Shown here: one piece after another, positions 5,279 through 62,600 of the stretch | Position numbering within the stretch: position 1 is the first letter of the stretch | How the letters are laid out: every line of letters begins with the position of its first letter | Assembly: GCA_951406725.2 (NCBI GenBank) | Contig: OX597823.1 | Location: 24,180,001 to 24,244,000, forward strand | Direction: 5' to 3' | Length of the DNA stretch: 64,000 nt | DNA from: Octopus vulgaris | Lineage: Eukaryota | Position numbers and translations under genes: made by a program | Notes under the pieces: generated by a model | Database searches by the model: none | Seen by the model: only the letters and a program-made list of their open reading frames with translations | Told to the model about the DNA's origin: nothing

Positions 5279-8200
5279 TCCATTTATTATTAAAAGGTAT
5301 TATTAAATGTTGTTTAGTTTCAACTTTTGTCTTGTATTTGAGATAATCATAAATATGTGAGGGTTTAAGGGAATGGCAGGAGCAAGAGAAACAGCTTAGT
5401 GAATTCTGCAGGTCAGTAAATAGATTTGGCAGATGGTGAAGAGATCAGCAATAGGCATTCCTGTGCCATAAGGAAACAAAGAGGCCTTACACCCTTGGGG
5501 TCAGCAGAGGTCAAATGTGTTTACTACTACTAGCAATAAAGGAGAGCACTGATCTTGGCCTTGGAAAGAACCAATTCTCCTTGTTCTATTTACTGATGGA
5601 AAAAATAATTATAATTATATATATATATATACTAAATTTCTGAATTATTTTCATTCAAAATTTATCTTTTCTGTTTGGCTGTGGTTTACAGTTTTTGTAA
5701 TTGTGCAGTTTGTATATATTGGCAGGTGCTTACCTCTTTAATTTTTTTTTTCATCATGCATTTAATTGTGTTGTTGCAATAAAAGGCATGTTTACATATT
5801 TGGGTAGTCAAGGAGAAAAGAAAGATGAAATTTTCACACAAAATTGTAGATATTAAAACTTTTAGATTTTCTCGAGATGTTCGTTTGTATGTCTGATCAG
5901 GGAAGACTGTAGTGTTTTTGCAATAAAAAGGTTGTTCCAATTTTTGAATACTCAAGGAGAAAGGAAAGAAAAGGAGGGTAAAATTTTCACAGAAAATTGT
6001 AGATAATAAAGCTTAAAGATTGTTGTTGTTGTTGTTGTCGTTGTTGCTGTTGTTGTTGTTTTGGTTTCGTCCAGGTTTAGTCATATTCCTGATACAAATT
6101 ATGTGGATAGCTAGTTACTACTACCTGTAAATTAAGTGTCCACAAGTTTTCAGCAGTCTTTGAAGTGCTTAGAACTTTACTGATAATCTTTGCTGTCCTT
6201 AACAGACAAATTTTCTGTAGGAGCTCTATCAGGCATTCTATTTCAATCTCATTCAGCCATTTATATCTTTACTTACTGTTCCCAATGCACCAATTATTAG
6301 GGACACAACCTTTATTGTTCGCATGCCCCAATTTCTTTCTATTTCAAGTTTTAAGGGATTGTACTTCTTTTGTTTTTCTTCCTCTTTCTGTATGATCCTG
6401 GAATCAAATGGGCATGATAGTTCGATAAGTAAGCAACTTCGTTTTTCCTTATTTATAATCGTTATGTCTGGTCTATTATTTTCTAATTTCTTGTCCATTT
6501 GAATAGGAAAAGCCCACAAAATCTTACATTTCTCTGACTCCAGTACTCTTTTAACTCGATGATTGTACCATGTATTTCCAGTTTCAAATCCCTATTTCTG
6601 GTACAGTTTCCAGTGTATAATTTTTACAATTCGGTCGTGCCTCCATTTGTTATATTTTTCCTGTGCCAACTTGAGACATTCTACCACAATGTGTGCCACT
6701 GTCTCATTCCAAGTTCCACAGGCTCTACATTTTTCTGAAACATGCTCTCCATATATATTTTTTCTCAAGTTGGTTGTTTTTATTGTTTGATCTTAGGCTG
6801 TTACAATTAAGCTCTCTGTTTCTTTTTTATTGACCCTTTCTTAACCAAGCCCAGGATTTTGTTTCACATACATCTTCAGTGGCTCTCCAGAATTGGCCAT
6901 GCAGAGGTTTCTCTTTGATCTGTCTGATGTGCTGTCTTTGTATTTTATTCTTATCCTTTTCTTCTATTACACACTTCATCACCTGTTCTTTATGAACTGT
7001 CTTTAGTAGTTTTTCTGTTTCAAATGAGTCTCAAGATTTTCTACACTCACATGAATTCTGACTAAGCTGCCATTTTGTGGATCAATTTTTTGTACTACAT
7101 AGATGCTATATAATATTTAATGTGTATTTTAGTATAAAATGTATTTCTTGTTTCCCTTCTTTCTTTCTAGCTGATGAGGACATTTTTACATTTAAAAATG
7201 CTATCTTAGATGTGCAGGATGTTTTTGAACCACTGAAAAATCTGAGCTTGAAGGAGTGTAAAGGAGCTTGCCTTCAGACTCCAGGATGTAGCTCTTATAA
7301 GTATAATGAAATGGCAAAGACCTGTCATGGAAATAATGCATCTCACTTGACTCATAACGTGAAACTAAACAAAAAGGGTTGGGATACTTACATCATTAAC
7401 CCAGGTCAGTAGGGAGTTTTCATTTTATTTATTGTGCATGCATTTACATGTGTCTTTTTGTGTGTCTTTGCATTTACATACATGTGTGTGTGTGTGTCAA
7501 TATATATATATATGTATATGATGGCCATCTACTCGTGACCAAGGACCTTTAGGAACATTGTACGCTCTAGGACTAACTTATATTTTGCATTTGTGGCTCC
7601 ATTGGTGGCTAATGAGCCATGCTCTTGACAAGCATACATGACTGCAAACATTGCAAACCAAGCTTTCTCCATTCACTACACTAGCAGTGCACTTTCAAGC
7701 AGCATGCTTAAACTTTTCATGCAGAATACATGCTCTCTCAAAGGTATCAACTCCTTCCTTAACCTGCATCCTCCATCTGTGGTGATGACAGGCATTGCTC
7801 TCCCAGTCAGTCTCCTGTATATCACAGGCCTTTAATGAGGACTTAGCACAGTCCTTAAATTGCAGCCTTCATTTCTGGCAGGGTTTCTTTCCACTAACAT
7901 GTTCCTCACATAACAAGTGTTTAGAGATCCTGCTCTCCTTCATTCTAATAATGTGTCTAGTCCAACATAACTGGTGCTTGTGCACCATTGTCTCAATACT
8001 CAAGATATAAGCTGTCCTCAGAACATGTGTGTCTGGAATTTTTAAGGTTCAGCCAACATTCAGAAAGTGTTTCAGATATCTCTGATGAAAGCATTCAAGG
8101 ACCCTTACATGACATTTATAAGGAAGAAAAGAGCTCATCGGTTCTGTATCAACACGCCAAGCAGGAACACAGGGGCTCAATCAACAACATAGAAGTTAAA

Positions 8201-8561
8201 ATCTTGTCCACACATAGAACAGATGCAACAATCAGACAAATTACGGAAGCTACACACATAATAGAAGATAAACTTAGCCTGAATAGGAAACTGGAATGGA
8301 ACACTAGCACACACCACATCATATGACAGAAGAGGATCCCCATAAACTGGTTACAATATAAACAAAACAGAAAGCATAATAAAATAAAATACACAGATGA
8401 ATAAACAAATGGAAGTAAATAACTATATACATTTTTTTATTATATTTAAAAAAAATTTTATCTTTATTTTTGTTTTTATTATTATTATTACTATCATTAT
8501 TGTTATACATACATACATAATAATAATAATAATGATGATAACGATAATAATAATGACAATG

Positions 8562-8610
<49 letters not shown>

Positions 8611-11027: not shown

Positions 11028-11101
<74 letters not shown>

Positions 11102-11117
11102 ATATATCTATCTATCC

Positions 11118-11180
<63 letters not shown>

Positions 11181-13043
11181 CAGTTAGCTATCTATCAGCA
11201 GCCCTGTGAAGGTATTTCTATCCACTAATAGTTTAGAAATTCTTCTTAAGACTAGGTTTTTAATTACAGTTAGTGGTGCTTGGAGTTTCTTTGGATAAAC
11301 ATAGTTTCCTCATTAGGAACGGACAGACAGACGGATGGATGGACAGACAGGTGCTACGAACACACATACATATATACATGCTGGTATCCATCTATCTATC
11401 TACATACATCTATACATACATACTTACATACATACATACATATATGTATGTATATATGTATTTATATCTGTGTGCATATTACTTCAATTTGATTCAGTCA
11501 AAATCTTCTGTTGTATCATTATCAATTTCTGCTCTTTCTCACCCAGCTCCTAATAAATACTTATAATCAATTCTAGTTTTAACAAAAATTAACTGTGGAA
11601 CTCCAAAAGACGTTGTTGGTGCATCGAAGTTCTACAGTACCACCAAATATAAATCTGAAGTGACCTATATTTGTCCAGGAGATGAAAAACTAAAGTCAAT
11701 ATGTGGGAAGGACAACAAATGGACTTCAGTAGCTCCTATTTGTGATGGTAACGTAAATAACTTCTCTTTTGTTGCCTCTGTCTGGATAATTTTGTTTTAT
11801 TTTTGTGATAAATGTGTTTGTCAGAGTAACTCTGAGTGACTCCATTAAAATTTACAGAATGTTTGTGGCTAGTAGGAAGGAGTGAAGGAGCTATCCTCAG
11901 ACCAGAAACCTTTCCAAGTGCTTGCAACAGAGTGGACTTCATTAATACTACCCAAGGGCCAGATAATGTTATTAAAGTGGGTGAAGGATTAAGTCTTTCA
12001 CTCAGACAACCGGAAGCATTGAAGTGTGTCCTCTCTAGCAGGATGCTGCATAACTTGCATCCACCAAATTTGATACGGCTTCATTGTGAAGCAAGTTCTT
12101 AACCACACAGACAAAACTCCATTCAGTATCTCATTGTTAAGTAAACTTATTACCTTCACAGCTATACCTCAGCTCATCTTGAGAGATTTTCGTTTGTTTT
12201 GTAACCCAACATTTCTCACTCTGTGCAATATAATTTCCTGAGTCCTTCTTTATTAAAACTCTGCAACAAACCTCTGATGCCCTTGCTATCTTCCAATCCA
12301 CCCCTTAATAATAATAGTAATGATGATGATGGTAATAATAATAATAATAATAGTAATAATAATAATGATAGTGGTATGAGCACACACCACAGAGAGAGGC
12401 GGAGTTGAAGACTAGCAAAATCCCTTGGGATTTTCCAATCCAAATAAACCATGTGCTAGAGCATAACAGACCAGATCTAGTAGTGGTCAACAAGGTGCAC
12501 AGCATGTGTTATATAGTTGATGCTGCATACCTCTTTGGCCCATGAATATTCAAGACGGAGGTGAAAAAATAGATATAGACAACCCTCTTAAGTATGAAAT
12601 AGCCTGGCTATTAAAAATGAAGAAGGTGAAGATAGTGCCAATTATTGTTGCATCCTTGGAAACAGTATCAGAAGGCATCAAGAGGAATATTAAGGAAACT
12701 GAAATAGAGTGCCCAGTAGAACTGTTACAAAAGGTTTGCCTCCTTGGCATGGCCAGAATAATCAGGAAAGTATTAGATAGTTAAAAAGAACAGATAGCAT
12801 GGTACCATATGCTGCATGCAGCAAGCCTGCTATGTATGCAAGACTCCAGGAGCTCCAACAAAACTTGTGATAAAAAGAAATAATAATAATAATTATAATA
12901 TTCTTTTATTTTCCTTTCTCTTCTATCACATAATTTGACTTTGTAAATGAACTATCTGGCCTGCCAATGTATACAGTGAGTTTCTTTACCCTAGATGTCA
13001 GGAATGTACTCAGTATGAAATGGAAATAAAATTGAAAGAAGAA

Positions 13044-13083
<40 letters not shown>

Positions 13084-16000
13084 GATCAATTACTAATTGA
13101 TGAGACTATCCTGGCTGATTGCAAGAAGAGAGACAAAAATTTGGTGATGGAATGAATGGGCTACAGGAAAGCATATGACATGGTCCCACACTGGTGGATA
13201 ATTGGATGCCTTAAACTACTTAAGGTCTCACACAATATCCTGAAGTTTATACAAAACTCAATGACAATATGGCAAATTGTACTCACGGCATGGGGAGATA
13301 AGCTGGGAGAGGTAAATATCAAAAGAGGAATCTTTCAAGGGGACAGTCTGTCGTCATTCCTATTTGTTGTCTGCATGCTGCCACTAATGAACTTTTTAAG
13401 AAAGACGTACATAGGGTACATGCTAGGCAGTGTGAAAGTAAACAACCTGTGATTTATGGATGACCTAAAGCTATTCACTAAGACTGAGAAAAAAATTGAT
13501 AGTTTGACAGCAACTGTGCAGATGATTAGCAAAGATATTGGCATGGAATTTGGGATCGAGAAATGTGGTGTAATGATTCTCAAAAAGGGGAAAATCAGTA
13601 AAAACCATGGGATCAAACTGGAAAGTGGTGAAACTATAAAGGAAGTCGGAGAGGAAGGATATGAGTACCTGGGTATTATTGAAAGAGATGAGATGAATAA
13701 ACACTAGATGAAAGAAATGTACTGGAAAGAGTATTTGAGAACTCGGCTTGTGTTCCAATCGAAGCTAAATGGGCGCTATAAGATTAAAGCAATTAACACA
13801 TGAGCTCTTGCTTTGATGAAATATGGGGCAAGAGTAGTATCTTGGAAGAAGCATGAATTACAAGAGATAGACCAGAGAACATGTAAATTATTGACAATGA
13901 ACAAAGAACTACACCCCAAGAGTGATGTATCAAGATTGTATGTAAAGAGGAAGGAAGGAGGACAGGAATTAGTGCGTTGTGAAGGTTGTGTAAGGGACGA
14001 GGAGAATATCTTGGCTTGGTATGTCAAGGATAAAAAAGAACTGATTGAATCAGTGAAAATGCAAGGAAACTTAAAAGTGAATGAAGCTGTAGATCCAACA
14101 CAATTTAAGAAAGACCAGAGAGAGCAGATGAAGGAAATTTGGCAAGACAAGAAAATACACAGTCAGTTCTTGAAGAATAAAGATGAGATTGACCGGAATC
14201 GAACATGGCAATGGCTGCAGAAAAGAGGCTTAAAAGGGCCCAATGAGGCGGCATTAGTGTGCAGCATTCAAGAACAAACTCTCAGAGCAAGCTACTCCAA
14301 ATATCACATTGATAAAAGCCCTGACTCACCACAGAGTAGGATGTGTCCTGAGAAGGGAGAAAGTATAAGCCATATTGTTAGTGAGTGCAGTAAGCTCACA
14401 CAATACCAATATAAAAGGAGACATGACAGTGTGGCCAGATATGTCCACTGGCTGCTGTACGGTAAAGCAAACCTTGAGAGAGCCGAACAAAGTTATGAAC
14501 ACAAGCCAGAGGGAGTAATGGAAAATGAACATTGCAAAATACTCTGAGATTTTAACATGCAGTGCAATCAAGTCACAGAGGCGAGACAACCAGATATCGT
14601 GCTCATCCATAAAGATAAAAAAGAAGTAAAGATAATAGATGTTGCAATACCAGGCGATTCGAGGGTGAAACGTAAAGAAATAGAAAAGATTGATAAATAC
14701 CAGCCACTGCAGGACGAGATAGGAAAGTTATGGGGCACGAGGAAAGTAATGGTGATACTGGTGGTAATTGGAGTATTAGGGGCAGTTTCCAAGAGCATTG
14801 AAAAACATATTAAGACTGTTGGAGCTGCTGTCAGGCTCAAGGTGCTCCAGAATACAGCATTGTTGGGTACAGCTTGGTAATACCTTCACAGAGAACTATA
14901 CAAAGTTGCAGAAAGAGTGTGGAGAGGAGTGTATGAACCAGATTCAAATGTACAAGTAGTTCAAACGTTTCCAAGATAGTCAACAAAATGTCAGCAGTGA
15001 CACACATTCTCAGAGACACCCAAAATGCAGAACTGAGGAAAATATCACTGATATGTGTACAGCTGTTCACAAAAACCATTGAATTACCATGTGTGAATTG
15101 TCACAGGATGTGAATATTTGTTACAGTTCAGTTCAGTCCATTCTTACTTAAGATTTGGCTACAAGACATGTGTCTGCCAAGCTTGTGCTGAAACTGCTTT
15201 CAGTTGCAATAACTTTTCTCCAATCACAACTTTTCCCACACCCCCAGTTTGTCAACCACCATATTCCCCAGATCTTGCCCATTGCAACTTTTTCCTCTTT
15301 CCAGGAATCAAATCCCACTTGATAGCAACAAGATTTAAAGATATCAAGGAAATTCAAGAGAATGTAATGTGGCAGATCCTTTATATCCAGAAAAAGGAGT
15401 TCTAGGAATGTTTCCATTGATGGAAATGATGCTTGATAAAGTGTGTAGCTTTAGAATGGAGCTACTTTGAAGGAGATTAAATGCCAAATTTATTAGTGTT
15501 GTAGTTTTCTTTTTATAGCACCAGTCTTGATAAGTTTTGATCAGATCTCAAACTTTAAAAATGCACATGAGGTCTTTATCAAAGTGAAAACTCCCTCTCA
15601 TTAGACATTTCAGGCTCACTCATAATCAACTTCTTTTTCTGTAGCTACTAGACAGCACACTGCTTTCTCCACCCAGCAACAGGAAAGTGTGGGGCAGTTA
15701 TCATGATAGATTTGACTGACAGTCAGATCCATCCTCCATACAATAGCAGGTGCTCTGCATAACTCCACAAGTCATCAATGACTGAACAATAATTAGTGCT
15801 TGGAAAATGATTTCATTGCATTGCACACATCTCAGACATGCCTGTCTGATATCATTTTCATGTTTTATTTTGTACCATTGTAGCTCTTTAGTAGTTCTAC
15901 AAAGCCAAGGACTTCAGGAAATTGTTTATCTGTCAATACGTGTTTATCCTTTGAACTAACTAAAGAAAGTGGAAAATGTTACTTATTAATGGAAAATGCA

Positions 16001-19000
16001 GCTTCCTCCAAGAAATTAAAGCCAAACGCAAACAAAAAGATATTTGAAACAATCTTGCTATTTCTTTATTTCATCATTGCCCAGTGCAACCTGAGAATAT
16101 CAGTGCACTAAGCTTCAATTGAAGAGTAGGACATCAAGCAATTCTATTGCCCATGTCAGATTTGATCCAGTATAATATATCTTTTGAAATCCTTAGGATT
16201 TCATTAGATAATGTGAAATACTCTTTTTAAAGTTGGTTAGGAGTGATTGAGGGAGGTTTTGTTTCTATTTTTAACATGCTAGGTACCTACAAAGACCCTT
16301 CTACACTGGCTGATCCACATTGAATTTTGAACATAATATCGCATGTCACAGCTTATTCTCTGGCATATTCTTTTGCCTATTTCAACATTACCATCTAGCC
16401 CTTCAGGTAGTCATGGCAATGGTGGCAAACAACACTTGGTCAGTGTTGATATATATCACAATAATAAACACTTGCATTGACCGACAGAAGTTCAGAATGG
16501 GCATAGAGCACATTAATCTCAAAAGTGTAGGAGGGAGGGTGGTATGAGAATTTCATGATGTCACTGTTATTGTCATGACTGACTTATTAAAAAATATAAA
16601 TACCACTTCATTGTAATCAATTATGTATTCTTTTGTTTAGGTACATGGCCAAACATAATTAGGGAAAGCAATAAAATTGTGTGATGTTCATATTGTTCTC
16701 TTTACAGTCTGTGTAAAGTGAACTGATGGAAACTGAGAAGGAAACCCAGATCATTAACTCACACCACTCAATCTTTGTTTATACTAAAAGAATAACTAGA
16801 GCAAAATACTCAGGGTCAATTCCTGCATAGAAAACAAATAGTAAAGTGGCTATGTACAGTAATAAGATATTATGATTAATTTTACAACCCTCAGTGGGTT
16901 GTAAAATCATTATTTTAAGAACTTATTCTGGTCATGAAATTCAGAAATGATAACCTTGTAAAGATAATTACTGGGGTTTTTTTTTTTCATTAAATGTGTA
17001 ATTCTGATGAAATATGATTTCTTAGCTTGCTAACATTAAGTTTTGAGTGTCCACATTACAACATATTTATATTTATTCACTGAATGATGATGATGAAAGG
17101 GAAATTACTTCAGTTTTCTCAAGCATAACATTGTAAAATATTAAAGTGATGGTTTATAGTCCTTGCCATTACTAGGCACATTTACATTCTGGGTTTAAAT
17201 TCCATTCCTTTACATCCTGAGCTTAAATCTCAATGGGATGTACTTTTCCTTTCGTACTTCTGAGGTTGATAAAACAAGCTGTATTCAAGTACTGAAGTAT
17301 CCTCACTGAAGAATGTATGGTTTTGTGCTTAAGATAGAAACCACTATCATTAATATCTGTAACTTCAACAATAATTATAATTGTACTTGTTCTTAAAGGT
17401 CATGCATTGACAGAATCATTAGAGCACCAGATAAAATGTGTTGTGGTATTTTGAGCACTTTCAATTCTAAGTTCAAATCCTGCTGATATTAACTCTACCC
17501 TTCCAGGGCCAATTAAAATACAATGCCAGTCAAACATTGGGGCCAATTTAATTGAAAATTAAAGATATGGGCTCATATCTGTATTAGAAATTACTATTAT
17601 TGTTGTTGTTCTTATATTTCATTGGTCTAAATTTTATTTTGAATCTAGATACTAAGAACCAATTTATGAAAATAAAAGATGCATTTCTGGATGTACCCAA
17701 CAAAATATTGGTGGACAAGGAAAATGTAACAGTGGAAGCCTGTATAGGAAAATGTTTATCTGTCAATACTTGTTTATCCTTTGAACTAACTAAAGAAAGT
17801 GGAAAATGTTACTTATTAATGGAAAATGCAGCTTCCTCCAAGAAATTAAAGCCAAACGCAAACAAAAATTACTACCAACGAATTAACCGTAAATATTTTT
17901 TGTGTTTTATTATTGGAATTCTCTTCCCAATTTTTTTCTGAAATTTATGATTCCTGGTAAAGACCTCATCATCTTTTTTGAAATTTCACTTTTAAAGGTA
18001 GGTGATGGTGGAGGAGGTACTGTCCTTGTGTGAATTTATATATAGGTGGATGGAAGTGGCAAAAATGGCAAGAATAGATGGCACCACTATAAGTGTAGTT
18101 TTGTGAGTCAGAGAACAGGAATTGGAGTGGCACTCACCCTAAGTGCTCAGGGAGATCTTGAATGGTGAGCTTCCTTGATTGACTCCAGATGTCCTCCTGC
18201 ATCAAGAGAGTCATGACTATTATCCCAGTCTTTCTAGTGATGTATACTTTTTTCTTTTCTTATACTGTATACTATGAATATTTACTACATTTTTTTTACC
18301 ATTATATTCTACGTTAATCACCACACTTTATGTCCATCTTTGTGTTATTCCCACATCCATCACCCTGAAGGCAAATAAAAGAAATTGTTCTTCTTTTACA
18401 GATCTTTTGAAAATATAATAATTATGTAGAAGTAGCATGTAAATGAAATTTTAAATAAAATATGATGAAGCCATCTGATGCATTGTTTTATAAAGGGATA
18501 ATCTATATATATAAAACTGAGAATGTGTGTCTGTCAGTCTGTATGAATCCCTAAAACTTCAGAACTACTCAACCAATTTCATTCAAATTTTACACATGCC
18601 TTACTTAGGGTCCATGTAGTGTCATGGGCAAAAAGGTTTTAACTTTTTGCCTAGGGCGAGCCCACAGCAATATCATATCTTCTCCACTATTTCAGTATTA
18701 CATGTCAAAAGTGAAGCAAAAACATCTCTCTATTGTAATGTCAAATGCTTTCACTTTAATACTTTCATTTTAATATTGAAACTATTAAAGTGAAACTTAT
18801 ATAACAGGGATGAACTGTAACTGGCCGTCCATTCTGCTAGAAGAAGATCACCTATGGCCTTATATGCTACACCACGGGTTTTAAATTCATATTTATCAAA
18901 TTAATATTCAATTTTTCACCCTTATTTTAAATTTAAATTTACATGTATATATATATACTGGAGTAAGCACATAAATGTGAAACAAGGTGGAAAAAAGAGT

Positions 19001-23652: not shown

Positions 23653-25976
23653 CACTTGACACTTGTTTAAGGGGGCATTGACCCTAAAAAATTTATACCA
23701 TTAAAGAAGAGATGAACAAATGAATTAACTGCAGCCTAAATATTGAGACAAGGTTTCCAATAAGTTTGAAGAAGTTCTACTACTCACATGAATTATGATT
23801 AGGGTATCATTTTGTTGATGAATTATTTGCTTATTATAAACTTGTAGTATCGCCCGGTGTTGCTCGGGTTTGTAAGGGAAATAACTATATCAGCATTTTT
23901 AGAGATGTAAAGTATAATAGTCATCTCAATATGGCTAACCACAAGGGGGGGGTTGCTGAAGCTTGTTACGTTCGGAGATTTAATAATAAATTTTTAGAGA
24001 GTTACTTCCCTTATATATGCCGAAAATGCATTAAAAATGGGAAAAATTGATGGTAAATTTTTTTTTAAATCGTAGACTCATCGTAGATGCACGCTAATAC
24101 CCAGAAGGGCTCGATATGAATCACAACTATAAGATACTCGGTTTTGGTTAAACTGCACCGCAAAGTGTGGGAGTAGTTAGGAATCTAAATCGTAGGAGAC
24201 AGACAGCACACAACCTCACTTTTATATATAAAGATTATCTATTTAAAAAAAAATTATGCACCATGTGCTTTGCAATGTTTAATGTTGTATGTTTTGTGTG
24301 TGCATAAAATGTACTTCTTGTTTCCTTTTTTTACCATCCAGCCAATGAAGAGCATATTATGCTTAAAAAAGTTAGTATACCTGGGCGAGATATTCTAGGA
24401 GTGCTTCCTAATGTGAACTTAAAGGAGTGTAATAAAGCTTGTCATCAATATCCAGGATGCAATTCTTATGCATATGATGAGAAAGGAAAGGTCTGTAGCC
24501 TGAGTGATGTTAGTCAGTTGACTGGTGTACTTAAACCCAAGAATGTAAATGCAGACATTTACATCATTAACCCAGGTCAGTAGAATATTTCCATCTTATT
24601 TATTGTCTGCATGTCTGTGTGTGTATGTATATACACATATGAATGTAGTTTGCAATCTCTTATTTGACTCTGTATTTGACAAAGCATATTTATATTGAGT
24701 TCTAACACCAGATTATTAATATCACTATACCTTAGTGAAAAAGGAAAATACATACATATGTGTGTGTGTACATCCATATATGTATGTATGTGTATGTATG
24801 TATATATAATATAAATTAGAGAAAAACCACTATTATGCAATTCAAACAATGATAGACATAAACCAAATCATAAATAAAAAGTAAAATATATTTTTTAAAA
24901 CATAAAACTAGATCACAAAAAGAACAAAAATGAATAAACAATATATAGTAAGTAAAAAAAACTACGTATGTTACATGGCTATAATTTAAATTCCAATTCC
25001 AATTAAATTTAAATTTAATTGAAAAACAATTCAATTTAAAATTATAGTCACTCTCCAGGTTAACAATAATAACTATAATTACTAAATAAATAAGCAAAGA
25101 GAATTAAACAATATTTCTTAAAGAAATAAAATCATGATATTTCTTATAGAAAAAACTCCATTAACTAAATTTGAAACTTAAAACATTAGGACCAGTTGCC
25201 AACTATACATTTATTATGTTAAATATTTAAGGTAAAAAAATAGAGTAAATAGATAGAAAAAGGTATTTATCTGTGAAGATATAATTTAGCTTAATAAAAA
25301 ACATTAATAAACTATAGAATATCTTTAACCTATACTCTAATATTTCATTCACTGTGATCACCATGACTGACCAGGCTATCAGATGTTGCTACACATCGCT
25401 GGTCACAATGTGCTTTGCATTGTTTTAGCCTTCAAATGATGCCACCCCGCTGGCTAAGTGAGCAGGCCAACAGAAGAAAGAGTGAGAGAAAGTTGTGGCG
25501 AAAGAGTACAGCAGGGATCGCCACCACCCCATGCAGGAGCCTCATTGAGCTTTAGGTGTTTTCACTCAATAAACATTCACAACGCCCCGTCTGGGAATTG
25601 AAACTGCAATTCTATGACCATGAGTTCGCTGCCCTAACCACTGGGCCATTGCGCCTCCACAATATTTAATTACTAAACTATTTTACAAAACAATCACTCT
25701 TAATATTTTTAGATTTTAATTCACATATAATAATTATAAAATAATAAATTTATATAAAAGTACGTATCTAAATTATAATCAACAAATATAGTAATTAAAA
25801 ATCCATATTTTTTCAATCAATAAACATATAAATAAATAGATAAATTACTCCATTATTACTTAAATAAATATTATAGATATCATTCCAAAAATATTTATGA
25901 AATAAAAAGAGTAAAAACATATAATTTATCGTTTATAAAATTATTTGTGTAAAAAGTTCTTCTTCTTCTTCTTCTT

Positions 25977-26041
<65 letters not shown>

Positions 26042-29000
26042 ATTTAATAGCAATAGAAATATAATAAGAGCTTTTAGTTATACTAAAACATTTTTGCAAT
26101 CTAAATCACAAAGTGACAAACTAATATTTTACAATTTAACGTTCAGATATAATAATTAAATAAATGTATGTATCTAAATTATCGTTGACTAATAAAAAAT
26201 TAGAAATTCATATTTAACAATTAATACTTATATAGAGTACAATAATATTTCTTAAATAAAAATGTCTACTTATCTCTCCAAAAGGTGTATTATGAACTAA
26301 AACGTTTTCAAAACGAAAAACGTATTACTTAGCATTTATAAATTTGCTCGTGAATACGTAGCTTAAAGAAATAGAACAAACAGATGGAAATATACGTTTT
26401 ATCAATGAAAACTACAAATATATTTTTGATTAACAAAAAAAGAGAATAAAATTACTAAACAGTAGCATATCAATCACTAGAAACCTAAAATTTAGAATTA
26501 ACTATGATAAAATATAAATATACTCAAATTATCATATAGTTAAATTAATTTATATAACTACAATTTACTGTATATTCTCTAATCCCCTTATACAAATTTA
26601 TTTGTTTCATTCATATAAATATGGTTATGTTAGAGCCCAAATTTTCCCCTGTAAGTTTGGAGTTACACTCCCTAAAATTATTATTATTATTATATATATA
26701 AAGAAAAGGGAGGAAGTCAGAATTTTGGATAATTGTTATTTAGTGCTTCCATCTCATTTCAGAGAATCATCAGGAAAAATATTTTTACAGAAAACATCAT
26801 TTATGTATTTGTGAGTTAGTTGAAAAAATCTAGAACTGAATTAGAAAGAGAATGTTCTTTGCTATTTCAAGTTTATATGTGCCCGTATATGTGTGTGTAA
26901 GTATCTGTACGTGGTGAATTTTTGAAGGGAGGTAGAAAACAGGAAAGATGAAAGAATGAGGATGATTCAAAGGCAGTATTAATTTAAACCCTCAAGGAGA
27001 CATAGGTAGTGCCAATAGATGACCCATGACTCTGTGTCATTCAAAAGAGTGATCAGAGTGACAGCTTTGTACACACTGATCTTAGTAACACTCTTTTATA
27101 CTGTCTGCGAAATGCACTTTTTGCCTTGACCAGTCTGTTGTTAACCACCTTGTTGATTTTGTTATTTGATGAGCTCATGCACCCTAAGTAGGTGAATTGG
27201 TTAACTGCCTTTAATTCAGTCTCACTGATGGTGATGTGAAGCGGGTATTATTCTTGCCATAGTGCACATTGATGGAAGATTGTTATTTTCATTAAACTGA
27301 CTTCTAAGTCAAAATATTAAGCTGCTTTTGTAAAGCAACAGTTAATGTCTTTGCCTTCGCAACAAAAACAACAGCATCTGCAAAAAGTAATTCATGAATA
27401 GCTTTTTCTGTTGTTCTGGTGTGATTTTATAAGTGCCTTAAGTTGAAATGTCTGCCATTGGTATGGTGCTGGATGTAGTGTAGATGCCATCTTCATCATC
27501 AGCATCATAGTCAAGAAGATAGGGAAAAGGGTTGGGATGTGGACATAGCCTTGCTTCACATCAGGGCTTGGAAAGATTGTTGCTGTGCATGGTCAGACCC
27601 TGTCAGTTTTCATATAGCTAGATGATCGTGTTGAGGGACTTGAGGGAACATCCAAAACACTTTAGGATTTGCCCTAGATTTCTTCTGCACAGTGTCAAAT
27701 GCTTTGGTGAGGTCAACAAAGGTAATGTAAAGTCCTTTGTTTTTGTTCTCTGAATTTCTGTTGTCTCTTGTTTGCTCTGAAGCTGCAATGGCTTTCTGAA
27801 AGGTTTTCTTCTGCAATAGTGAGCAGTACTTTCACAAAGATTTTGCTCACAATGGAGAACAAGTGACCTAAGTCAGTAGAATATTTCCATCTTGTTGGAC
27901 TTAAAGAAGTGTAATAAAGCTTGCCATCAATATCCAGGATGCAATTCTTATGCATATGATGGGAAAGAAGAGGAGTAGTTGGAGTAGTCAGACCTCCTAC
28001 TCTACACAAAATTCATTGCTATGATCATTGCTGACTTTGACCTTACTAACAGCATGCCTGTAAATGGCTTGTACAACTTTCATCAACCACTCATCTATTC
28101 GTAGCTTCTGTATTGACTAGCATTAAAGAGAGTTGGGGATACTATATAAGGCTTTCTCCATGTCGACAAAAGTCAAGTACAATGAATCGTTTTTTGCTAA
28201 ATACTTCTCTTGCAGGAAGATAGCACCGATAATGCTTCTCCCTAGCACAAAATGAAACTACATTTCGTCTAGACTAACTCCCTTCCTAAATAGTTGAGCT
28301 ATGACCCACTCTGTAACTTTCATCACATGGTCCAATAATTTGATGCCTCTGGAATTATTTCTGTCTAAATCGTGACCTTTGCCTTTGTAGCAGTTGGCTA
28401 TGATACTGCTACACCAGTCATTGGGTATTGACTCCCTTGTAGAAAATCTGATTAATTATCCAGGAGACTAGATAATATCCCACTATGCCAGGTATTTTAA
28501 GTATCTCAGCAGTGGTTTCTGATGGGTTGGTCTCCCTGTCGCCATATCCTTAATTGCTTTATCTACCAAGCTACTGTTGATTTAGATAGTTGGTTCCTCT
28601 GTTGGGTTACATTAGGCAGACTCTCCTCATATGCATTCTCTATATTTATCAGCCTTTTACAATGGCACTTCCAAGCCTTTTTCTTTGTAGAATTGCTAAC
28701 TGCAAGTGACCCGTTATCCATGTAAACACACATCTTTCCTACAATATCATGATTTTCTCTGACACACTTTACTGTCTTGCAATTCGAAACACATCAAACT
28801 TCTGATCCTCACACTGTAAATTTCTTTCTTTCTGCTTCTCCTTTTGCTAAATATACCTGTCTCTTAGCTTTTCTTCTAGCTACTTGATATAGTTTTCTTC
28901 TCCCCCCACTTTTCCAGTCCTACCAAGCCTCTCTATTTACTCTAATGGCCCTGTCTACAACATTGTTCTATCACCCTGTCACCTTTGTGGGACTTTGTGC

Positions 29001-47300: not shown

Positions 47301-48064
47301 GGTTGTAGGTAATCCTTTTGTATATCCCTCTACCAATGGTGTGCATGGCTGTAATAACACTTGACACAGGCTGACCACATTTTTAAGTATGTAATAGCTC
47401 TATAAAAGCATACCATTAGAGAAGAGACATACAAATGCATTGTCTTGAGCCTAAGTAGTAAGACAAGGTTTCCATTAAGTTTGAAGAAATTGTACAACTC
47501 ACATGAATTTTGATGAGGATGTCATTTCATGGATCAATTATTTGTTTACAATAAATTAAACATTTACAAAATTTTGTACCACATAGTTTACAATATTTGA
47601 TATGTGTGGTGTGTGTGTTTGGTTGGGTGGACATGTATAAAATGTATTTCTTGTTTTCTATGTTTTCTTTTTTTATCCAGCCGATGGAGCGCCTCTTGTG
47701 CTTAAAAATACTAGCATAGCAAGCAAACATACATTTGAACGTCTTGAGAATTTAACCCTAGCTGACTGTCAGGAAGGTTGTTATCTATATACAGACTGTT
47801 CATCATATTCATTCAATACCAAAGCTGAAATCTGTGAACTGAGTCGTGCGAATGAGTTGAGTCATATAATTCACCATGACAGTGAAAGTTTGGAGGTACA
47901 TGTTCTTAACCAAGGTCAGTGAATTCTTCCTTTATTATTTATTGTGTGCATACCTGTGTGTATTTACATAGATACATGTGTGTGTATTTACCTATCTATC
48001 TATCTTTCTATGTATCTATCTAGCTTTCTATCTATTTATCTCTCTCTTCTCTCTCTCTCTCTCC

Positions 48065-48104
<40 letters not shown>

Positions 48105-51100
48105 TGTCAGTAAATCATAAATCCAAAAGAGAAGCACACTCTAGAGCTAGAATATTTAGATAAAGATAGTTATGGCTGGTTTATAGGGTTACCTAGAGTG
48201 TCACATCCATAAAGCACTTTGCTTTATGTCTCATCAGACTGTAATGGTTGACCATAACTATCTTTATCTAAACATATATGTATGTGTGTGTGTGTGTTAA
48301 AGTTTGGAAAATGGAGAGTTGGTAAAGATGTAAATTAATTTAACATAGTTCTAAGGTAAAAACTGAATACAAATAAATTTAAAAAAAGAAAACTATGTAC
48401 ATTTCGATTCCAGCCCACAGATAAATGCAAAATTTCAAGAACTGCATTAAATCCAATGATGAGAATTATCATTTTGAAAAATATAGGGTAGAATCTCTTC
48501 AGATATTTTTTTTTTTTTTAAGCTGATGTTTACATGCTTATGAAAGGGATTAAGTTAATATACTAGGGAAGAAAGGAAATATCTATCTTACATATAGAGT
48601 GTAGGTATATGTTAAGAATATCATACAAATAAACAAAAAATATAAAAGTATAAAAATAATTAAAAATAAAAATATTAAAAAATAATACATAAAAAGTATT
48701 AGCAAATAGAAATAAAGACGTATTATAATCACAAAGATAAAATAAAAACAAATAGTAATAAATATGTAATACAAATAAAAATAAAACCATCATCTATTTA
48801 AATTACTATTAGTTTACATAGTCAATGTAAACTCTTGACCAAAGTGTCAGTAGCCATAAAATCCTATCGAATCAAATTTATTTATTTATATATAATAGTG
48901 TGTAGTCAAGTTTGAACTGTATAGTTGTTAAGAAATGCATCATTTCATATTTATATATATACTCATATAGACTGTTAGTGTATGTATGTGTGTTTGTTTA
49001 TATTACAGTTATATGTACTTATGTAGGAGTGTGTTTGCCTTTATTTAAATGTGAAAATATTCTTATATACTTATATATATATGTCGTTCAATAATTTGAG
49101 ACACTAGGATATTTTCCTACTTTTCTTAACATGAATCCAATGGTAACCTTAATTTACAAATAAAGAAATTATATATCCACCAATGTAGTGTTAAGCACTC
49201 ATTTCATCATTCAATATTTATGTATATATTATGTAGAATATGAGGATTTTAGACCACCGCTTAGATTCCTCTAATATATATGTATCTATATATATATGTG
49301 TGTGTATATATATCAAAAGAATGTGCTTATAATACTATTCCACAGCCACACTAACAATCCAATAATACTGTTGCACATATACAAAAACAGCCATACCAAC
49401 AATCCTAAATACCTCCATCATCAGCTGTCCTACAGATACCATTATAGTTTCAATACCTGAGCAGTACCATTCAATCCAGTGGTGTCAACAGCACTAAAAT
49501 AAGTGTTGTCTGAAAACAAACCAAGGAAACCACAGCTTTCAAACACATTTACCTTATGTAAATAAATTCAATAAGTAAATTACAACCAACTCCTAAATAG
49601 GTAACTAAACAGCAACAGATCTATTAAGTCATACAAAAATTATAATCCCTACCATCTTCCATAACACCTGCGTGTGTGTGTGTGTGTGTGTGTGTGTGGT
49701 ATCAAAAGATTCCTGGACTAGCTATGTTTAATAAAAAATAATTTATTTACCTAAGTTTTAACATCTTTAAAATAGTCACCTTGTACAGCAATACACTGGT
49801 CCCAGTGTCTCAGCCATTTTTGGAATCCAGCCTGGAAGTCATTTTCTGTAAGTGAGCCAAAGACCTTCTGCAATTCACTCTGGATCTCTTCAGCAGTGTT
49901 CAAGCAGCAATCATTGAGTTGCATTTTCATCCTGGGGAAGAGATGGAAGCCCACAGGTGGAATAGGGTGGGTGCCGAAGCAATGCCATGTTGGTTTTGGT
50001 GAGGAACTCATGAGTGAGGAGATCTCAGTGAAGAATCCAATTCTTTGTGCTTCACAGATCCAGCCACTTTCACCAACTTGCCTCCCTCAAATGCTTCAAA
50101 ACATCGCAGCTGGACTCACAATTGACAGTCTGGCCTTGGGGTACAAATTCTCAATGCACAATATCACATTTCCAGGAGATGCTTGTGGCTGGTCTTCCAG
50201 ATTGCTCATTGTCTTCCAGGGACATTCTTCTGCTTTTGAAGCACCCATGCCACTCGAAGCATTGTGTATGTCCCATTGCCATAAGCTTGCCAAAGTATAA
50301 TAGTAAACAACCGACTATATAGGAAATAGAGTGGATGATGATAATCTACTGAGAGATCTGAACTTACTAATATCAGTGGTACATCAAACTATACCCACAA
50401 GTAACACTATCTACCTATCTGTCTATCTATCCATCTGCATGTCTGTCCAGCCATCAATTCATCTATTTCTCTTTCTCTGTGTGTATGCATGCATGTTGAC
50501 TTCAGTTTCTTTTACTATTTCAGCTCACAAAAAAATTGACTGTGGTCCACCAAAAGACATTGCTGGTGCAAAGATGTCCTACAGTGCCACCACCTATAGA
50601 GCTGAAGTGATCTATACTTGTCCAGGAGGAGAAACAGTGGAATCAGTATGTAAAGAGGATGATAGATGGACTCCAGTTGCATCTGATTGTAGAGGTAATG
50701 TAAACAGGTTCTCTCTTGTCTCTGAATTGGAAATTTTGTTGTTTTATGTAAAATATCTTTATCAAAAGAAGAACAACTAACTCCATGACAATTTCCATGG
50801 TGTCTGTGGCTGGTGGGAGGAAGACAGGAAGCTATCCTCATACCAGAGACCTCCCAATATTCTTGTAACAGAGTGGACTTCATTAACCTTTTGATACCAA
50901 CCTGAATGAGACTGCCTCTGGCTCTGTAGTACAAATGTCTTGTTTTCAAAAGTTCTAAATTAAAATCTTCCATCAAACCTTACTCACAATTTATATTCCT
51001 AACACTAGCTTAATGATAACTAAGTTATTTTACTAAATTCTTTGTCATATTTAAAATTAACTGAAAGAAACATAAAGCGTCTCAACAGAAATATGATAAC

Positions 51101-54100: not shown

Positions 54101-56620
54101 AAACCCAGATCGTTGACTCACATCATTCAATCCATATTTATACTGAAAGAACAACTAGGGAAAAGTACGGCCATTTCCTGCATGGAAAAGAAATAGGAAA
54201 ATGGCTAGCTATTGAACCAAGTCATTATCACTAATTAAAATTATAGCCTCAATGGCTAGTAAAGTCATTAAGTTAATGACTTGTGGTCATGAAATTCAAA
54301 AGAGGCAACTTCATAAAGATATTCACTTTTCTTTTTTCATCTCGCTAAAATCATAATTTTCAGGAATTAAAATTTCTTAGCTTGCTAACATTGAGATTTG
54401 CATATCCACCTTTACTACTTATTTTATATTTATTCACTAGATGATAATACAAATGCTCTTTTAGTTTTTGAGGGCAAAGCATTACAAAATCACTAAAGTG
54501 ATGGGTTTTGCCATCACTAGTTATATTTAGTTACATCCTTTTACATTCTGGGTTCAAATCCCACCTGGATGTATTTCACCTTTCTTACTTCTGGAGATGA
54601 TAAAATAAGTATTATTCAAGTACAGAATTTCAACTGTTTTCATGTATCCTCCCTGCAAAATTTGTAGCTTGTGTTTAAGTTAGAAATATTAAATATTGTT
54701 AAGTTCAACAGTAATTATAATTGTTCTTGTTATTAAGGTGATGGATCAACAGATTTATTAGATTATCAAAGAATGTTGTGATATTTGTTCTAGCTCTTTA
54801 ATTTCTGACCTCATATCCTGCTGACGTAAGCTTTGTCTTTCCTGGACCAAGAAAACACTATACCAATCAAGTATATTGGGCAATTTAAATTACCAATTCT
54901 GACCTCAGATTTTTTGTGGGAAGTTATTATTATGGTTCTTATTTATATTTGTATAAATTTTCCTTTAATTCTAGATACTCAGATGCATTTTGTGAAAGTA
55001 AGTGGTGCAATTCTACATGTACCTGGGAAAATATTGTGGAATGAAAATGTAACAGCAGAAGACTGTGCAAATGAATGCTTATCTGACGATACTTGTTTAT
55101 CATTTGAAATAAGTAGAGGAAGTGGAAAATGTTACATATCAAAGGAAAGTGCAGCTTCTTCCAACAGATTAAAACCTACCAATAAAAGAGATTACTATCA
55201 ACGAATAAAACGTAATTATTCTTTGTATTTTATTATGTGATTTACTTTTCAGCATTCTCTGATACCTGATTCCCTTTGTACTTCATATTATATACACAAC
55301 CATTTTTGTCCAGACACTGCCGGGTTTATCTATTAGAAGAGACATAAACATTCCAGAAATTAGCAATATTAAGAACTATAAAAACTGTTAGGGCATTTTC
55401 ATTCAGCATTCTTTTGCCTTGAACACTTTTATGCATATTTTTAGTTGCTGATTTTTTTTGTGTGTAAGAAATGAAACTTGTGTTCTTTTTTAAAATCTGA
55501 GTAATAGTAGTAGCAACAGCAGTGGCAGTGGTGATGGTGGTAAGAATGATTTCAAATTTCAGCACAAGGTCATCAGTTTTTGAAGGGCAAGTGTTAGTTT
55601 ATACCACCAACTCCAGTTCTTGACTGCTGTTATATTGTATCCACATCAGAAGGATGAAAAGGAGTGTTTCCTGACAGAGTTTGAACTTGGAATGTAATGA
55701 GATGGAAGACATACAGCAAGGTAGTATGACTTTTGCATGGTATTTCACCATTTGTTGCTCTGATACACAAAGTAATCAAAAAAAGATAATGCCAATCTGT
55801 TTAGTTGTATATCTCCCATATGGTTATTTTGGCTGGATGCCCTTTCTATCACCTACCATTATACCCACATGAAAACAATACACTTCCCATGCTACTTAGA
55901 GAAATTTTCTGCTGGGACAAACAAGTTTTTTTCAACATAAAATAAGAACAATTCCATCATATTAAGAAGAAAACAGCAAATTCACTTATTGATCTCAAGG
56001 ATTTTATCTTTCCTATTCAAAACCCCACATTCATGATACTTCAAGGAAAATTTACTATATTTTGTGACCTCAATCATAGCAGTGTGCATTACTTTAGACT
56101 TGAAGTCAGGTATCAGACAAGTAATACCTCTAAACAGCTTAATGAAGAGAACAGACACCTTCGTGGGAATTTCAACTCCTACTTTCAAGCTATAATGTGA
56201 AACATAGTAGCTAGAGTTAAAAAAAGAATATCCAATTTATCCACAGGCAGGAATATATTTGATTTCATTTTTCCTTGTACAATGTGTTTTGTTGGATGAG
56301 CTTTTGAGAGAATTTAGTATAAATAAAGCATCATCAACCTCTACAACTTAAAAAAATTAGAAAAAGAGCAGCTTGGTTCAATACCCTACTCTACCTAAAT
56401 GTCTCCTTGAACATGGTCAGGAACTTCTATCCTGCATTAGACATTTTTCAGGCACATGTTAGTATTACAAGCTTATGAATGTGCATAGTGCTAAAGTTTG
56501 TTACTCCTGTTGTGGTACTATTAGTTCCAGCATGGTATGTTATAGCACAGTGGTTCCTAACCACTTTTTAAATGAGTTTTCCCATGGACCCCTTTTAATA
56601 TGCTTATCCATATGTGTGTG

Positions 56621-56672
<52 letters not shown>

Positions 56673-59600: not shown

Positions 59601-62600
59601 AAATATAATTTCCTAAGTAAGAAGAAACCAAAATTGGGTACTTTTGATGCCTTTGGAGATGACAGAGTAATTTGGAGTTTGTGTGGGGTTCATACCATAA
59701 GACCTTAGGTAAACAACCCTCCTATTGGGGAATTTTCTTCTTGAAATTTTCATTGACCTTTATTTTTATATCATTGTCTTACATGGCTAATAAAAGAAAT
59801 TATTAGAAATTTTGTTATTGTTGTCATCATCATCATCGTTTAACCAGATTGTTAATCCAATAATACAGGAAAGTATTCTAGCCAATCCCTGATACAGCAG
59901 AAGCATTATAAACAGCAACAAAAGCAAAAGGGATTCATTAGAGGAAATTATAGAGGCATCAAATCATTGATGCTAGCTATGAGGGCAAGAAAGTGAATCA
60001 TTGCATTGTTGATCCAAACGAAAGTAAACCTAGATGCAATGCAACTAAGTTGTAAGTAATAAAAAAGAAGACAAGGCTTGGGTGTCTTCAGAGAAGTGTT
60101 TTGTTGGATATACAGAAAAGTAGAAAGGATAAACTTGATACATTGTATTCAGTATGGCATGTGGCAGAGACATACTATGAATGCTTTAGAAAGATTTTCC
60201 AAAAGGCATAGATGGCTCGCTTAGAAGTAGTCAATAACTTCTGTTACCTGGCAGATACAATAAAAAGAGAAGGTGGTTGCTCAGAAAGAATGGTAGCCAG
60301 GATAAGAATATGCTGCAAAATGTTTGGGAAACTATTACCATCTCTGGCCACAAAAGTCTTTGTGTTCAGACTGAAGGGCAGATTGTATGACACTCATGCT
60401 AGAACTGCAATATTACATGATAGTGACACATAGATGTTGAATGCAGTAGACTTGCAAGGACTAGGAAGAAATGAATGCATGTTCTGATAGATTTGCACGA
60501 TTTTTATTCCTCAATGTAATGTTTGTGCCCTTCAATACAAAGCACTAAGGCTACATTGTCAGAACTGAGATGCTTGGATCCAGTTGTCTAGCTCAAGTGG
60601 CTGAGGCACTAACCCATAATTTGGTCTTTGGTTGACTGAGGAATTCTAAGTTGTTATTTTGTAGATCAATTTATAATAAATTGTCCATTTAAAATAAATC
60701 ATGCACCCTGCAGAGTGGTTTGTGTTAGGAAGGTCATCCAGCTGTAAAATCCGTGCCAAAACAGACACAGTAGCCTAGGGCTGTTTTTCTACCTGGCTGG
60801 CTCCTGTCAACTGTCCTACTCATGCATGCATGAAAGAAGGACACTAAACAATGATGATGATGATGCTATATATTTGATATGTTTGCTTGAATATAAAATG
60901 TCTTTCTCATTTTCTTTTGTTTCTTTTTTATCTAGCCGATGATGAACTTTATATAATTAAAAGAACTTCCATACCAGGGAAGGATACGTTTGGACTGCTG
61001 AAAAATGTGAACTTGGAGGAGTGTCGTCAAGCCTGTCATCAGACTCCAGAATGTAACTCTTTTGACTACAATGAAAGAGCTCAGGTCTGTGATCGAAGTA
61101 ATGCAACTCACTTGACTTATAACCTTCAACCCAGCAAATGGGGCTGGGATACTTACATTTTAAACCCAGGTCAGTAGAACGTTTTCATTTTAGTTTTTAT
61201 GTGTGCATGTGTTTTTGTGTTTATGTTTATTTAAATAGAGGTTCATGCATGTGTGCAATATACAGGGTGAATGAATAAACTGTCCTCTAAATTACGCAAA
61301 AATAAAAATAACACTGACATCTCATTTTGGCAGATATATTAACCAAAATTACATAAAAATATCTTCAAATACTAAAGAGTAAATTTATTCAATAAATTCA
61401 CCATTGGCTTCAACCACAGCCTCCAGACGACTTCAGAATTTCCTACAACTCTTCTGGACGGTCTCATTGTTTAAGTTGGTGAATGCTTTCATAATCCTTT
61501 CCTTCAGTTCATCTTTGGAGTTACAAGGAGTTTTGTTGGTCTCTTACTCAAATGCACCCCACACATAATAATGAAGGGGATTGCAGTCTAGGGAGTTAGA
61601 TGGCCAGATGTTAGGGGTGGTGTGGTCACTGAAATTGTCTGACAGCCATGACTGGGTTCCCCTGTTTGTGTAGTGTGGTGCAGAGTCCTGTTGCCAGACA
61701 CAGGGTCTTTCAGCAGCCACCCTCTTGACCCAGGGGAGCACTACCTTCTCTAAGCACTTGATGTAGGCCTCTGTGTTAAGTCTGAGGCTGTGTGGGAAGA
61801 TTAATGGAGGCACAACGTCACCATCGCTAGTAATCATTCCAAACACCATGATATTGATTGAATGTTTGTTTTATCACTTTCAGTACTTGTTTTGGGGACA
61901 CAGCAATCAAACAGTTGTTCACCATCTAATCCTGGCAAAAAGTTTTCTCATCTGAGGAAAACCAAAGCATGTTCTGTTGGAGGGGATGATTGAGTTTGTT
62001 CAAAAGCTTTGTAGTGTGGTCTTTCTTTTTGTCCTTGATTATTTGGGATAAAAATTAGCTCTTCCTCATCTTGTATGAGGAATACCAAATGTCTTCATGC
62101 ACTACCTGCCTGATAAGAAACTCAGACACTCCCACGTTCCTGGTGATGAACCTGATTGACTTGGAAGGATTGTTGTCAACCATGGCCTGGAAATCACAAA
62201 CAAATTCAGGAACTTTTTTTCTTATTGGAGTGAGTTTTACAAACTACCATACCTTCATAATCACCATTAGATTCATCCAATTCTTTCTTAACCCTCTATA
62301 TTGTCCTAAGATTGACACCCAAACACTCTGAGATATTCGTACTGGAGTTTCCAGCTTGAATGTCAAGCAGTACAGCATGTTGTTTCCAAATTTCTGGCAG
62401 AGTGAATTGTGTCATGCTGCTGTTTTTCTCACAGACAGTGCCCAAATGACCCTACTATACTGTATAGTCAACAAAATCAAAAACAAACAATGCACATGTG
62501 CATAATTAAGAATATAAAATAGCTACAATTTACCCATCACACCTTGAGACTAGTATAATTTCTTTTTGTCCCTATATCTAAAAGAATTTACATAAACTGA

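Follow-up and report, generated by a model that had tools for sequence, protein, structure and literature searches.

The window analysed here is a 64-kb stretch of Octopus vulgaris DNA (contig OX597823.1; G000:C10:24,180,001-24,244,000) from the centre of a 1.64-Mb array of exons encoding two kinds of PAN domain, PAN-A and PAN-B (hereafter A and B), and Sushi domains. It holds 13 exons of phase 1-1, all on the + strand: four A, four B and five Sushi. Compared with NCBI-labelled proteins, the window exons are 100% identical in O. vulgaris and 98-100% identical in O. sinensis. All eight A and B exons exceed the gathering cut-off of PF00024 (29-47 bits against 21.4); of four Sushi exons scored against PF00084 (cut-off 20.7), two lie above and two below. 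The original prediction, made from the letters of the window, singled out the variability of the B exons. This is of modest interest alone, and our main result is the probable giant gene to which these exons belong.

The exon array and its predicted giant gene

Genome searches returned more than 100 copies of each exon type between 23.27 and 24.99 Mb of C10, all on the + strand and without stops. The region from 23.20 to 25.06 Mb (1.86 Mb) was analysed whole. Hidden Markov models gave 348 matches there, all on the + strand and in the order (AB S1-3)n, where S stands for Sushi. Two partial exon copies lie in the window and were left out of all counts; without them, the region contains 134 Sushi exons and 106 each of A and B, arranged as AB S(0-3). 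Each of these 346 exons encodes four or five cysteines (Cys), exactly four in 106/106 A, 105/106 B and 132/134 Sushi exons, and a tryptophan is conserved in Sushi. By a rough calculation, stops would be expected in ~219 of the 346 exons if these were unconstrained; none was observed, and the array holds no full-length dead exon. B follows A in 105/105 cases, and module identity peaks at spacings of 4, 8 and 12 units, a higher-order repeat.

Unit 1 is a separate small gene. The giant gene comprises units 2-106 (G000:C10:23,362,495-25,003,050) and runs from a signal-peptide-like exon (at 23,362,495) through a micro-exon of 30 nucleotides (nt; at 23,363,457) and 105 repeats of A, B and 0-3 Sushi to four GON exons (24.990-25.003 Mb) and a stop. 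All 343 repeat exons, which encode 210 PAN and 133 Sushi domains, have AG..GT ends, lengths that are multiples of three and no stop at their junctions. The 349-exon model amounts to 73,059 nt and reads 24,352 amino acids (aa) with no internal stop. The predicted protein has a mass of 2.75 MDa before glycans, an isoelectric point of 8.9, 1,390 Cys and 272 N-glycosylation sequons.

The signal-like exon is hydrophobic, in frame and 75% identical over 124 nt to the signal exon of the small gene upstream; it was missed by a hydrophobicity scan and found by homology. The GON exons are 80-84% identical to the GON part of P0004. In the 1.86 Mb, GON exons occur twice, behind unit 1 and behind unit 106, and the signal exon and micro-exon likewise occur twice each, in the small gene and in the giant gene. 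Homology scans found no further signal exon, micro-exon or GON exon inside the array. The 343 repeat exons are likely to form one gene with a predicted secreted product of 24,352 aa; we infer one transcript and one secreted chain with no membrane anchor.

Public annotations split the locus, and the longest model found, in a search that went to 5,000 aa only, has 4,087 aa. In O. bimaculoides, NCBI-labelled models divide it into at least seven pieces, and those of O. vulgaris and O. sinensis into several, as would be the case if the array were several genes with missed internal starts and ends. However, the annotated pieces that we inspected mostly start and end inside domains or by intron read-through and have neither a start exon nor an end exon in common, and the absence of further terminal exons from the array in the above scans also speaks against several genes, a reading that we consider very improbable. 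O. bimaculoides models are collinear with the array over units 15-18, 33-39, 40-43, 44-62 and 103-106; the longest of these stretches, units 44-62, spans the window, and that of units 103-106 is joined to GON.

Some of the fragments carry the labels SVEP1-like or ADAMTS9-like. With the octopus proteins, SVEP1 shares Sushi domains and ADAMTS9/GON-1 the GON domain. No vWA, EGF or pentraxin domain appears in the Pfam lists of P0006, P0014 and P0015 or in the exon model (introns were not scanned), and neither metalloprotease nor TSP1 was found in the Pfam scan of P0011 or in the exon model. Since the defining domains are missing, neither label fits. Current octopus annotations thus hide the locus as many unrelated, wrongly named fragments.

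Three further observations concern the array and its surroundings. The B exon of unit 43 (G000:C10:24,093,506-24,093,706) has 201 nt and has lost its first strands, yet it is 82-88% identical in O. bimaculoides. The A-B intron of unit 105 (L041:3676-4281) measures just 132 nt, compared with a median intron of 3,992 nt. Short tandem repeats on both strands lie ~6 kb past the last GON exon (G000:C10:25,008,900-25,012,000, L045).

Exon joints and related proteins

To examine splicing, contigs of four presumed-RNA runs were aligned to a single six-exon stretch of 10 kb close to the 3' end. Three of the four runs gave four GT-AG joints at the ends of model exons (B-S, S-A, B-S and S-S). All four canonical joints connect consecutive exons, including a Sushi exon with the next A, and a single contig of 572 nt covers B-S-A. 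Run X17 gave two further joints, which we read as cross-mapped consecutive junctions of units 60 and 66-67. The letters of the first match the A-B junction of unit 60 with one mismatch, tied with a non-consecutive pairing; those of the second match the Sushi end of unit 66 exactly. As a separate observation, run X1 contains the unit-105 stretch of L041 whole, intron included, yet none of the six exons of L039, which carries no evidential weight.

Several points weigh against a single long transcript and its secretion. The splice evidence is confined to the one 10-kb stretch near the 3' end, outside the window, and comes from runs that are only presumed to be RNA. The longest transcript seen covers three exons, and no A-to-B joint is among the rows listed for this stretch (three rows are not among them). 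The signal peptide was called by eye and by homology to the paralogue's exon rather than by a predictor. Finally, a skip that links unit 66 to unit 103 is another way to interpret the second X17 joint.

This last joint, a Sushi end of unit-66 type followed by an A start placed on unit 103, is what would be expected if one promoter and one GON end served transcripts with subsets of modules, joined by long-range skipping into a repertoire of medium-sized secreted recognition proteins. All repeat exons being of phase 1-1, any skip would keep the frame; positive selection in all modules (see below) and the 1.64 Mb that a full pre-mRNA would measure also favour such skipping. Nevertheless, the four canonical joints are all consecutive, and the odd joint stops after 35 letters, at the point from which the A exons of units 67 and 103 differ, so that a cross-mapped consecutive junction fits. 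The exon types are moreover interleaved, with A always followed by B, and no full-length exon is dead. We therefore regard a skipping-based repertoire as unlikely.

Same-phase arrays of paralogous exons between unique ends are known from the mutually exclusive exons of Dscam and from the clustered protocadherins. The octopus array shares with them many same-phase paralogous exons between unique ends. It differs in that its exon types are interleaved rather than blocked, the observed joints are consecutive, and no internal promoters or start exons were found. That the locus instead yields a single secreted chain of ~24,350 aa, in which 210 different, selection-diversified PAN domains in a species-conserved order would present the whole binding repertoire, is a proposition for and against which we see an even balance.

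The small gene formed by unit 1 (G000:C10:23,269,851-23,294,200, L057-L060) lies 68 kb upstream of the giant gene and consists of a signal exon, a micro-exon, A, B, Sushi and four GON exons (465 aa). Sequence on the promoter side is homologous between the two genes, and the GON domain scores 122 bits on the paralogue P0011. The small gene is the orthologue of GON-Abd-1 of Abdopus aculeatus (UniRef R4G2C1, 465 aa), with 81-84% identity per module; Octopus orthologues of GON-Abd-1 are XP_014778328.1 and XP_029640861.2. GON-Abd-1 reportedly stems from the posterior salivary gland transcriptome study of Ruder et al. 2013. The PAN-Sushi-GON family is also present in entries of 335-396 aa from Sepia, Lottia and Haliotis. 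GON-Abd-1 and these molluscan proteins have the same order of parts as the giant gene (signal peptide, a putative one in the giant gene, then PAN-A, PAN-B, Sushi, GON). In the giant gene, 105 A-B units and 133 Sushi domains stand where the small ones have a single copy, at ~52 times the length. Considering that the giant gene adjoins its own one-unit, ancestor-like paralogue, the expansion should be traceable stepwise.

The A-B pair is an old module, judging from its occurrence elsewhere in the genome and in another protein. The unnamed P0067 (815 aa) carries the same pair ahead of VWD-C8-TIL-VWA domains, a combination typical of gel-forming mucins, and P0025 of Argonauta (356 aa) has a signal peptide and two tandem copies of the pair but lacks GON. 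A further homologue search gave only three unnamed single-exon matches. Elsewhere in the genome, two more A-B pairs lie on C13 (L211:5504-6705, + strand; L213:6093-5041, - strand) and a single PAN exon on C17 (L214:4982-4725, - strand); these copies are ~30-50% identical to family members.

What appears to be new is the ~50-fold internal expansion of this known family into a predicted secreted protein of 24,352 aa. Our literature search found no paper describing the locus; it did not cover supplements, where venom-gland tables may list the gene. In the main text of 10.64898/2026.04.09.716377 and of PMC12607849, a word search found neither GON nor PAN.

Divergence and selection of the modules

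The original prediction held that B exons are hypervariable, with about 23 of 78 residues identical between the B exons at 7171-7404 and 47681-47914, compared with about 43 of 80 for the A exons at 824-1063 and 40739-40978 and about 60% for Sushi pairs. We measured 22/77 (29%) and 42/79 (53%), respectively, and 41-70% for the ten Sushi pairs of the window (309/560 pooled, 55%), in good agreement. The contrast also extends over the array, where mean identity is 0.461 for B, 0.579 for A and 0.581 for Sushi; among 5565 matched unit pairs, A is more alike than B in 4894 and less alike in 574. The B pair chosen is, however, not typical: it falls in the 2nd percentile of the 5565 B pairs, and exon 47681 has the lowest mean identity (0.29) of all 106 B exons. 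Other B pairs of the window are 25-48% identical. Likewise, the constant length of 234 nt and the four Cys that had been described for B apply to all four B exons of the window, but array-wide 234 nt is found in 80/106 and the others have 231, 237, 225 or 201 nt.

Two types of B exon can be told apart, alpha (36) and beta (69), which alternate along much of the array. At fourfold sites, B differs by 0.218 within and 0.283 between its types; the corresponding values are 0.198 and 0.203 for the unit's own A and 0.273 and 0.279 for the Sushi that follows. The flanks of B track the split (0.200, 0.227, 0.247), and those of A hardly do. Alpha B exons are as alike as A exons (0.576) and have 20 columns at 90% conservation, compared with six in beta. 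B looks more varied because of this early split into two types together with the few fixed residues of beta. We infer from these patterns that, early in the expansion, copies of A and of Sushi became homogenised and the two lineages of B stayed separate.

The flanks also bear on another claim, namely that the non-coding surroundings of B exons remained similar while the exons diverged. The quoted motifs do occur at both B exons, but they are not special to B: near the splice sites, a consensus of 70-90% is found equally in the flanks of A and Sushi. A B-specific conserved element was rejected for this reason; the motifs are splice-adjacent sequence of equal age, conserved equally at A and Sushi exons. 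A flanks are alignable over more sequence than B flanks, a comparison limited by the TG/TA microsatellite behind B. Donor sites are fixed by exon type, with GTAATT in 97/107 A matches, GTCAGT or GTTAGT in 95/107 B matches, and GTAATG or GTAACA in 92/134 Sushi matches.

Between species, A and B change equally fast. In O. bimaculoides orthologues, identity is 2172/2654 for A (0.818, 34 exons) and 2132/2581 for B (0.826, 34 exons; A versus B p=0.99), and 2028/2344 for Sushi (0.865, 42 exons). These counts leave out B016 (14 aligned residues) and the stretches of unclear collinearity in P0002 and P0008 and keep the mis-modelled A016 (0.49), without which A is at ~0.83. Within the array, the donor of unit 43 B was set by hand, and unit 1 was excluded from the pairwise ratios of nonsynonymous to synonymous divergence (dN/dS). 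In 75 pairs with an intron divergence of 0.06-0.18, dN of A (0.11-0.18) and of B (0.10-0.19) is level with the introns. Among 21 disjoint pairs of recent origin, differences that change an amino acid number 291/3662 in A and 342/3641 in B (p=0.03) and synonymous ones 99/1291 and 111/1192, so that dN/dS is ~1 in both. Whole-exon dN in these pairs is 0.084 (A) and 0.100 (B), set against 0.098-0.109 for introns.

The pairs of the original prediction themselves have dS 0.88 and dN 0.72 for B, and dS 0.19 and dN 0.34 for A. B dS scales with dN in these very pairs. What had been named as speaking against faster B evolution, namely dS scaling or an alikeness of A through shared recent ancestry, is largely what we found. 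Fourfold sites also differ more in B (0.241) than in A (0.197); both measures are given, because dS obtained by counting runs too high in B and Sushi when set against fourfold sites. In neutral units, the B tree is 1.2-1.3 times the A tree (51 versus 39).

Selection on sites was assessed with codon site models in our own code. M0 gives whole-exon dN/dS of 0.76 for A, 0.79 for B and 0.71 for Sushi. Comparison of M8 with M8a under three frequency models yields, as twice the log-likelihood difference (2dL), 174/192/132 for A, 90/106/84 for B and 88/124/100 for Sushi, with a top-class dN/dS of 1.6-2.5. Of four null simulations, three gave 0.1, -0.3 and 0.5, and the one with heavy recombination gave 15.4. 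Sites at P>0.95 number 21 in A, 16 in B and 8 in Sushi. Those of B are spread over the N-terminal linker with the first strand, the loop that precedes strand 2, the helix and the hairpin rather than confined to one sequence stretch. In held-out pairs, for which the site classes had been learned from other units, the fastest third of sites exceeds synonymous change in A (147/1274 versus 99/1291, p=0.001) and in B (154/1241 versus 111/1192, p=0.016). The slowest third separates the two (27/1197 changes in A, 79/1221 in B, p=3e-7), and A has 14 invariant columns compared with five in B. A minority of sites is thus positively selected in A, B and Sushi alike, most strongly in A, and B has a smaller fixed core and no hotter surface than A.

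These results alter the proposal that diversifying selection has made B a hypervariable surface for ligand binding, held by a scaffold of A and Sushi. In its favour stand the identities of 46% in B versus 58% in A, the significant M8 test for B, B dN above the flanks in deep pairs (given below) and the six 90%-conserved columns of beta. B does have sites with dN/dS >1, but so does A, with a stronger signal, more such sites and an equal mean dN/dS, and a scaffold role for A is not supported. Sushi is the slowest module (86.5% between species), as a scaffold would be, but it carries an M8 signal too. Diversifying selection specific to B was rejected on the equal rates between species, the equal M0 values, the stronger signal in A and the scaling of dS, and for recent evolution the proposal is largely refuted by the equal dN/dS in recent duplicates and the greater synonymous depth of B. 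We now hold it to be quite improbable as a whole; the B-versus-A contrast is mostly explained by age and core size.

Positive selection may be challenged from the other side, if the surfaces drift neutrally under conservation of the fold alone and the M8 signal is an effect of conversion, of AT-biased or multi-base mutation or of constrained synonymous sites. That whole-exon dN in the 21 recent pairs is about the intron value, and that exonic dS of A (0.08) lies under intron divergence, fits such drift. The held-out excess of the fast third in A and B, and null simulations with 2dL of at most 15.4 against 84-192 observed, contradict it. Neutral drift seems improbable to us, and it touches the selection part only, leaving the gene model unaffected.

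Selection in all modules at equal A and B rates also has evidence against it. The tests use our own code rather than PAML and have only four null simulations, and the fast third, with a divergence of 0.125-0.136 in recent pairs, is only ~1.2-1.4 times neutral when set against the introns. The tightness of the alpha and beta classes is partly circular, as they come from clustering B itself. In deep pairs, dN of B (0.46) exceeds the divergence of the alignable flanks (0.32), compared with 0.32 versus 0.29 for A. The comparison of dN with flanking introns gave a divided answer, level with the flanks for recent B duplicates and above them for deep pairs, and given the excess in deep pairs, selection may have acted on B, notably on beta, in an early burst.

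Predicted history and role, and features of the window

We propose that a small PAN-PAN-Sushi-GON gene was duplicated and that one copy would then have multiplied its A-B-S unit, at a later stage four units at a time. B may have split early into two alternating types, which A and Sushi do not follow, conversion among A and Sushi copies being likely. Since this split, A and B would have changed at an equal rate, about that of introns overall, around a fixed core.

With regard to function, the A domains are basic (net charge +7.4, 17% Lys), and the B domains have a net charge of -0.6 and 1.3 sequons each. The AlphaFold2 model of a B exon has a predicted local distance difference test (pLDDT) score of 87 and shows the PAN fold, in which a helix packs against an antiparallel sheet around a CxxxC core; its top Foldseek rows are PAN/apple domains with template modelling (TM) scores of 0.6-0.8, all with E >0.001. 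The TM-score is 0.81 against the N domain of plasminogen and 0.63-0.67 against Toxoplasma MIC4 and Sarcocystis SML-2, none being a match at E<=0.001; the fold is further likened to the N domain of HGF and the PAN module of Eimeria, that is, to multi-apple/PAN adhesins and lectins. With these apple/PAN proteins, the octopus domains share 14-23% identity, and they differ in having four Cys only and 210 copies in one chain. Apple domains of the factor XI type have six Cys and a third outer disulfide, which is not found in the A and B domains with their Cys numbers given above.

The secreted chain is predicted to act as a very long multivalent extracellular cross-linker, in which lysine-rich A domains would bind polyanions and B domains glycans or partner proteins, with Sushi spacing both. 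A role in mucus, glue or a gland secretion or matrix is a tentative assignment, to which we give somewhat less than even credence. The explanation as a whole (one giant gene, its history, equal A and B rates and a predicted cross-linker role) seems to us moderately probable.

With 3.5-4 nm per domain, the chain would reach ~1.3 micrometres; titin is a larger protein than the octopus model. If the model is true, the chain would be roughly a micrometre long when extended and larger than Dumpy, the largest protein of the Drosophila genome, for which PMC5715762 gives 2.5 MDa and 800 nm. Translated whole, it would be among the largest animal secreted proteins and above Dumpy on paper (2.75 MDa before glycans versus 2.5 MDa). 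Both are giant extracellular proteins of disulfide-bonded modules with a higher-order repeat; Dumpy has EGF repeats and a ZP domain, whereas the octopus model has PAN and Sushi, a GON end and no membrane anchor in its sequence. Beyond its size, the locus offers 105 parallel copies of each domain, with one-to-one orthologues in another species, as material on the divergence, conversion and selection of tandem domains. It also raises questions about the splicing of a 73-kb reading frame with 349 exons and about the secretion of such a chain.

The features of the window are collected in Table 1. The motif ahead of the B acceptor is likely a splice-signal region inherited with the unit.

Table 1 Exons, exon copies and one motif in the 64-kb window (positions counted from its first letter)
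Feature	Position	Strand	Remarks
PAN-A exon, unit 49 of 106, 240 nt, phase 1-1	824..1063	+	PAN_1 37 bits; orthologue 80% identical
Conserved intron motif TATAAAATGTATTTCTTGTTT ahead of B acceptor	7133..7153	+	Core TATAAAATGTA exact at 24/106 B exons
PAN-B exon, unit 49, alpha type	7171..7404	+	B1 of the original prediction; orthologue 82% identical
Sushi exon, unit 49, 171 nt	11577..11747	+	
Intronic partial copy of A exon 17649	15916..16038	+	98% over 123 nt; no usable exon
PAN-A exon, unit 50	17649..17888	+	
PAN-B exon, unit 50, beta type	24342..24575	+	
Intronic partial copy of B exon 24342	27896..27973	+	92% over 78 nt; no usable exon
Sushi exon, first of unit 50	30361..30531	+	
Sushi exon, second of unit 50	38104..38274	+	
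PAN-A exon, unit 51	40739..40978	+	A3 of the original prediction; orthologue 72% identical
PAN-B exon, unit 51, beta type	47681..47914	+	B3 of the original prediction; most divergent B of the array; 76% identity in O. bimaculoides
Sushi exon, unit 51	50524..50694	+	
PAN-A exon, unit 52, 237 nt	54975..55211	+	
PAN-B exon, unit 52, alpha type	60936..61169	+	Fold from 60-row alignment, pLDDT 87, PAN fold
Sushi exon, unit 52	62802..62972	+	

Among the 342 introns of the array, the two partial exon copies are the only sizeable ones; both lie in the window and both derive from exons of unit 50. Pfam gave no family match for the three intronic frames tested. Decayed intronic repeats occupy window positions 13000-14550, 20114-21473, 32289-35412, 44761-47071 and 56659-57760, several of them in at least two copies, and by eye their open frames resemble what we take to be pieces of retroelements.

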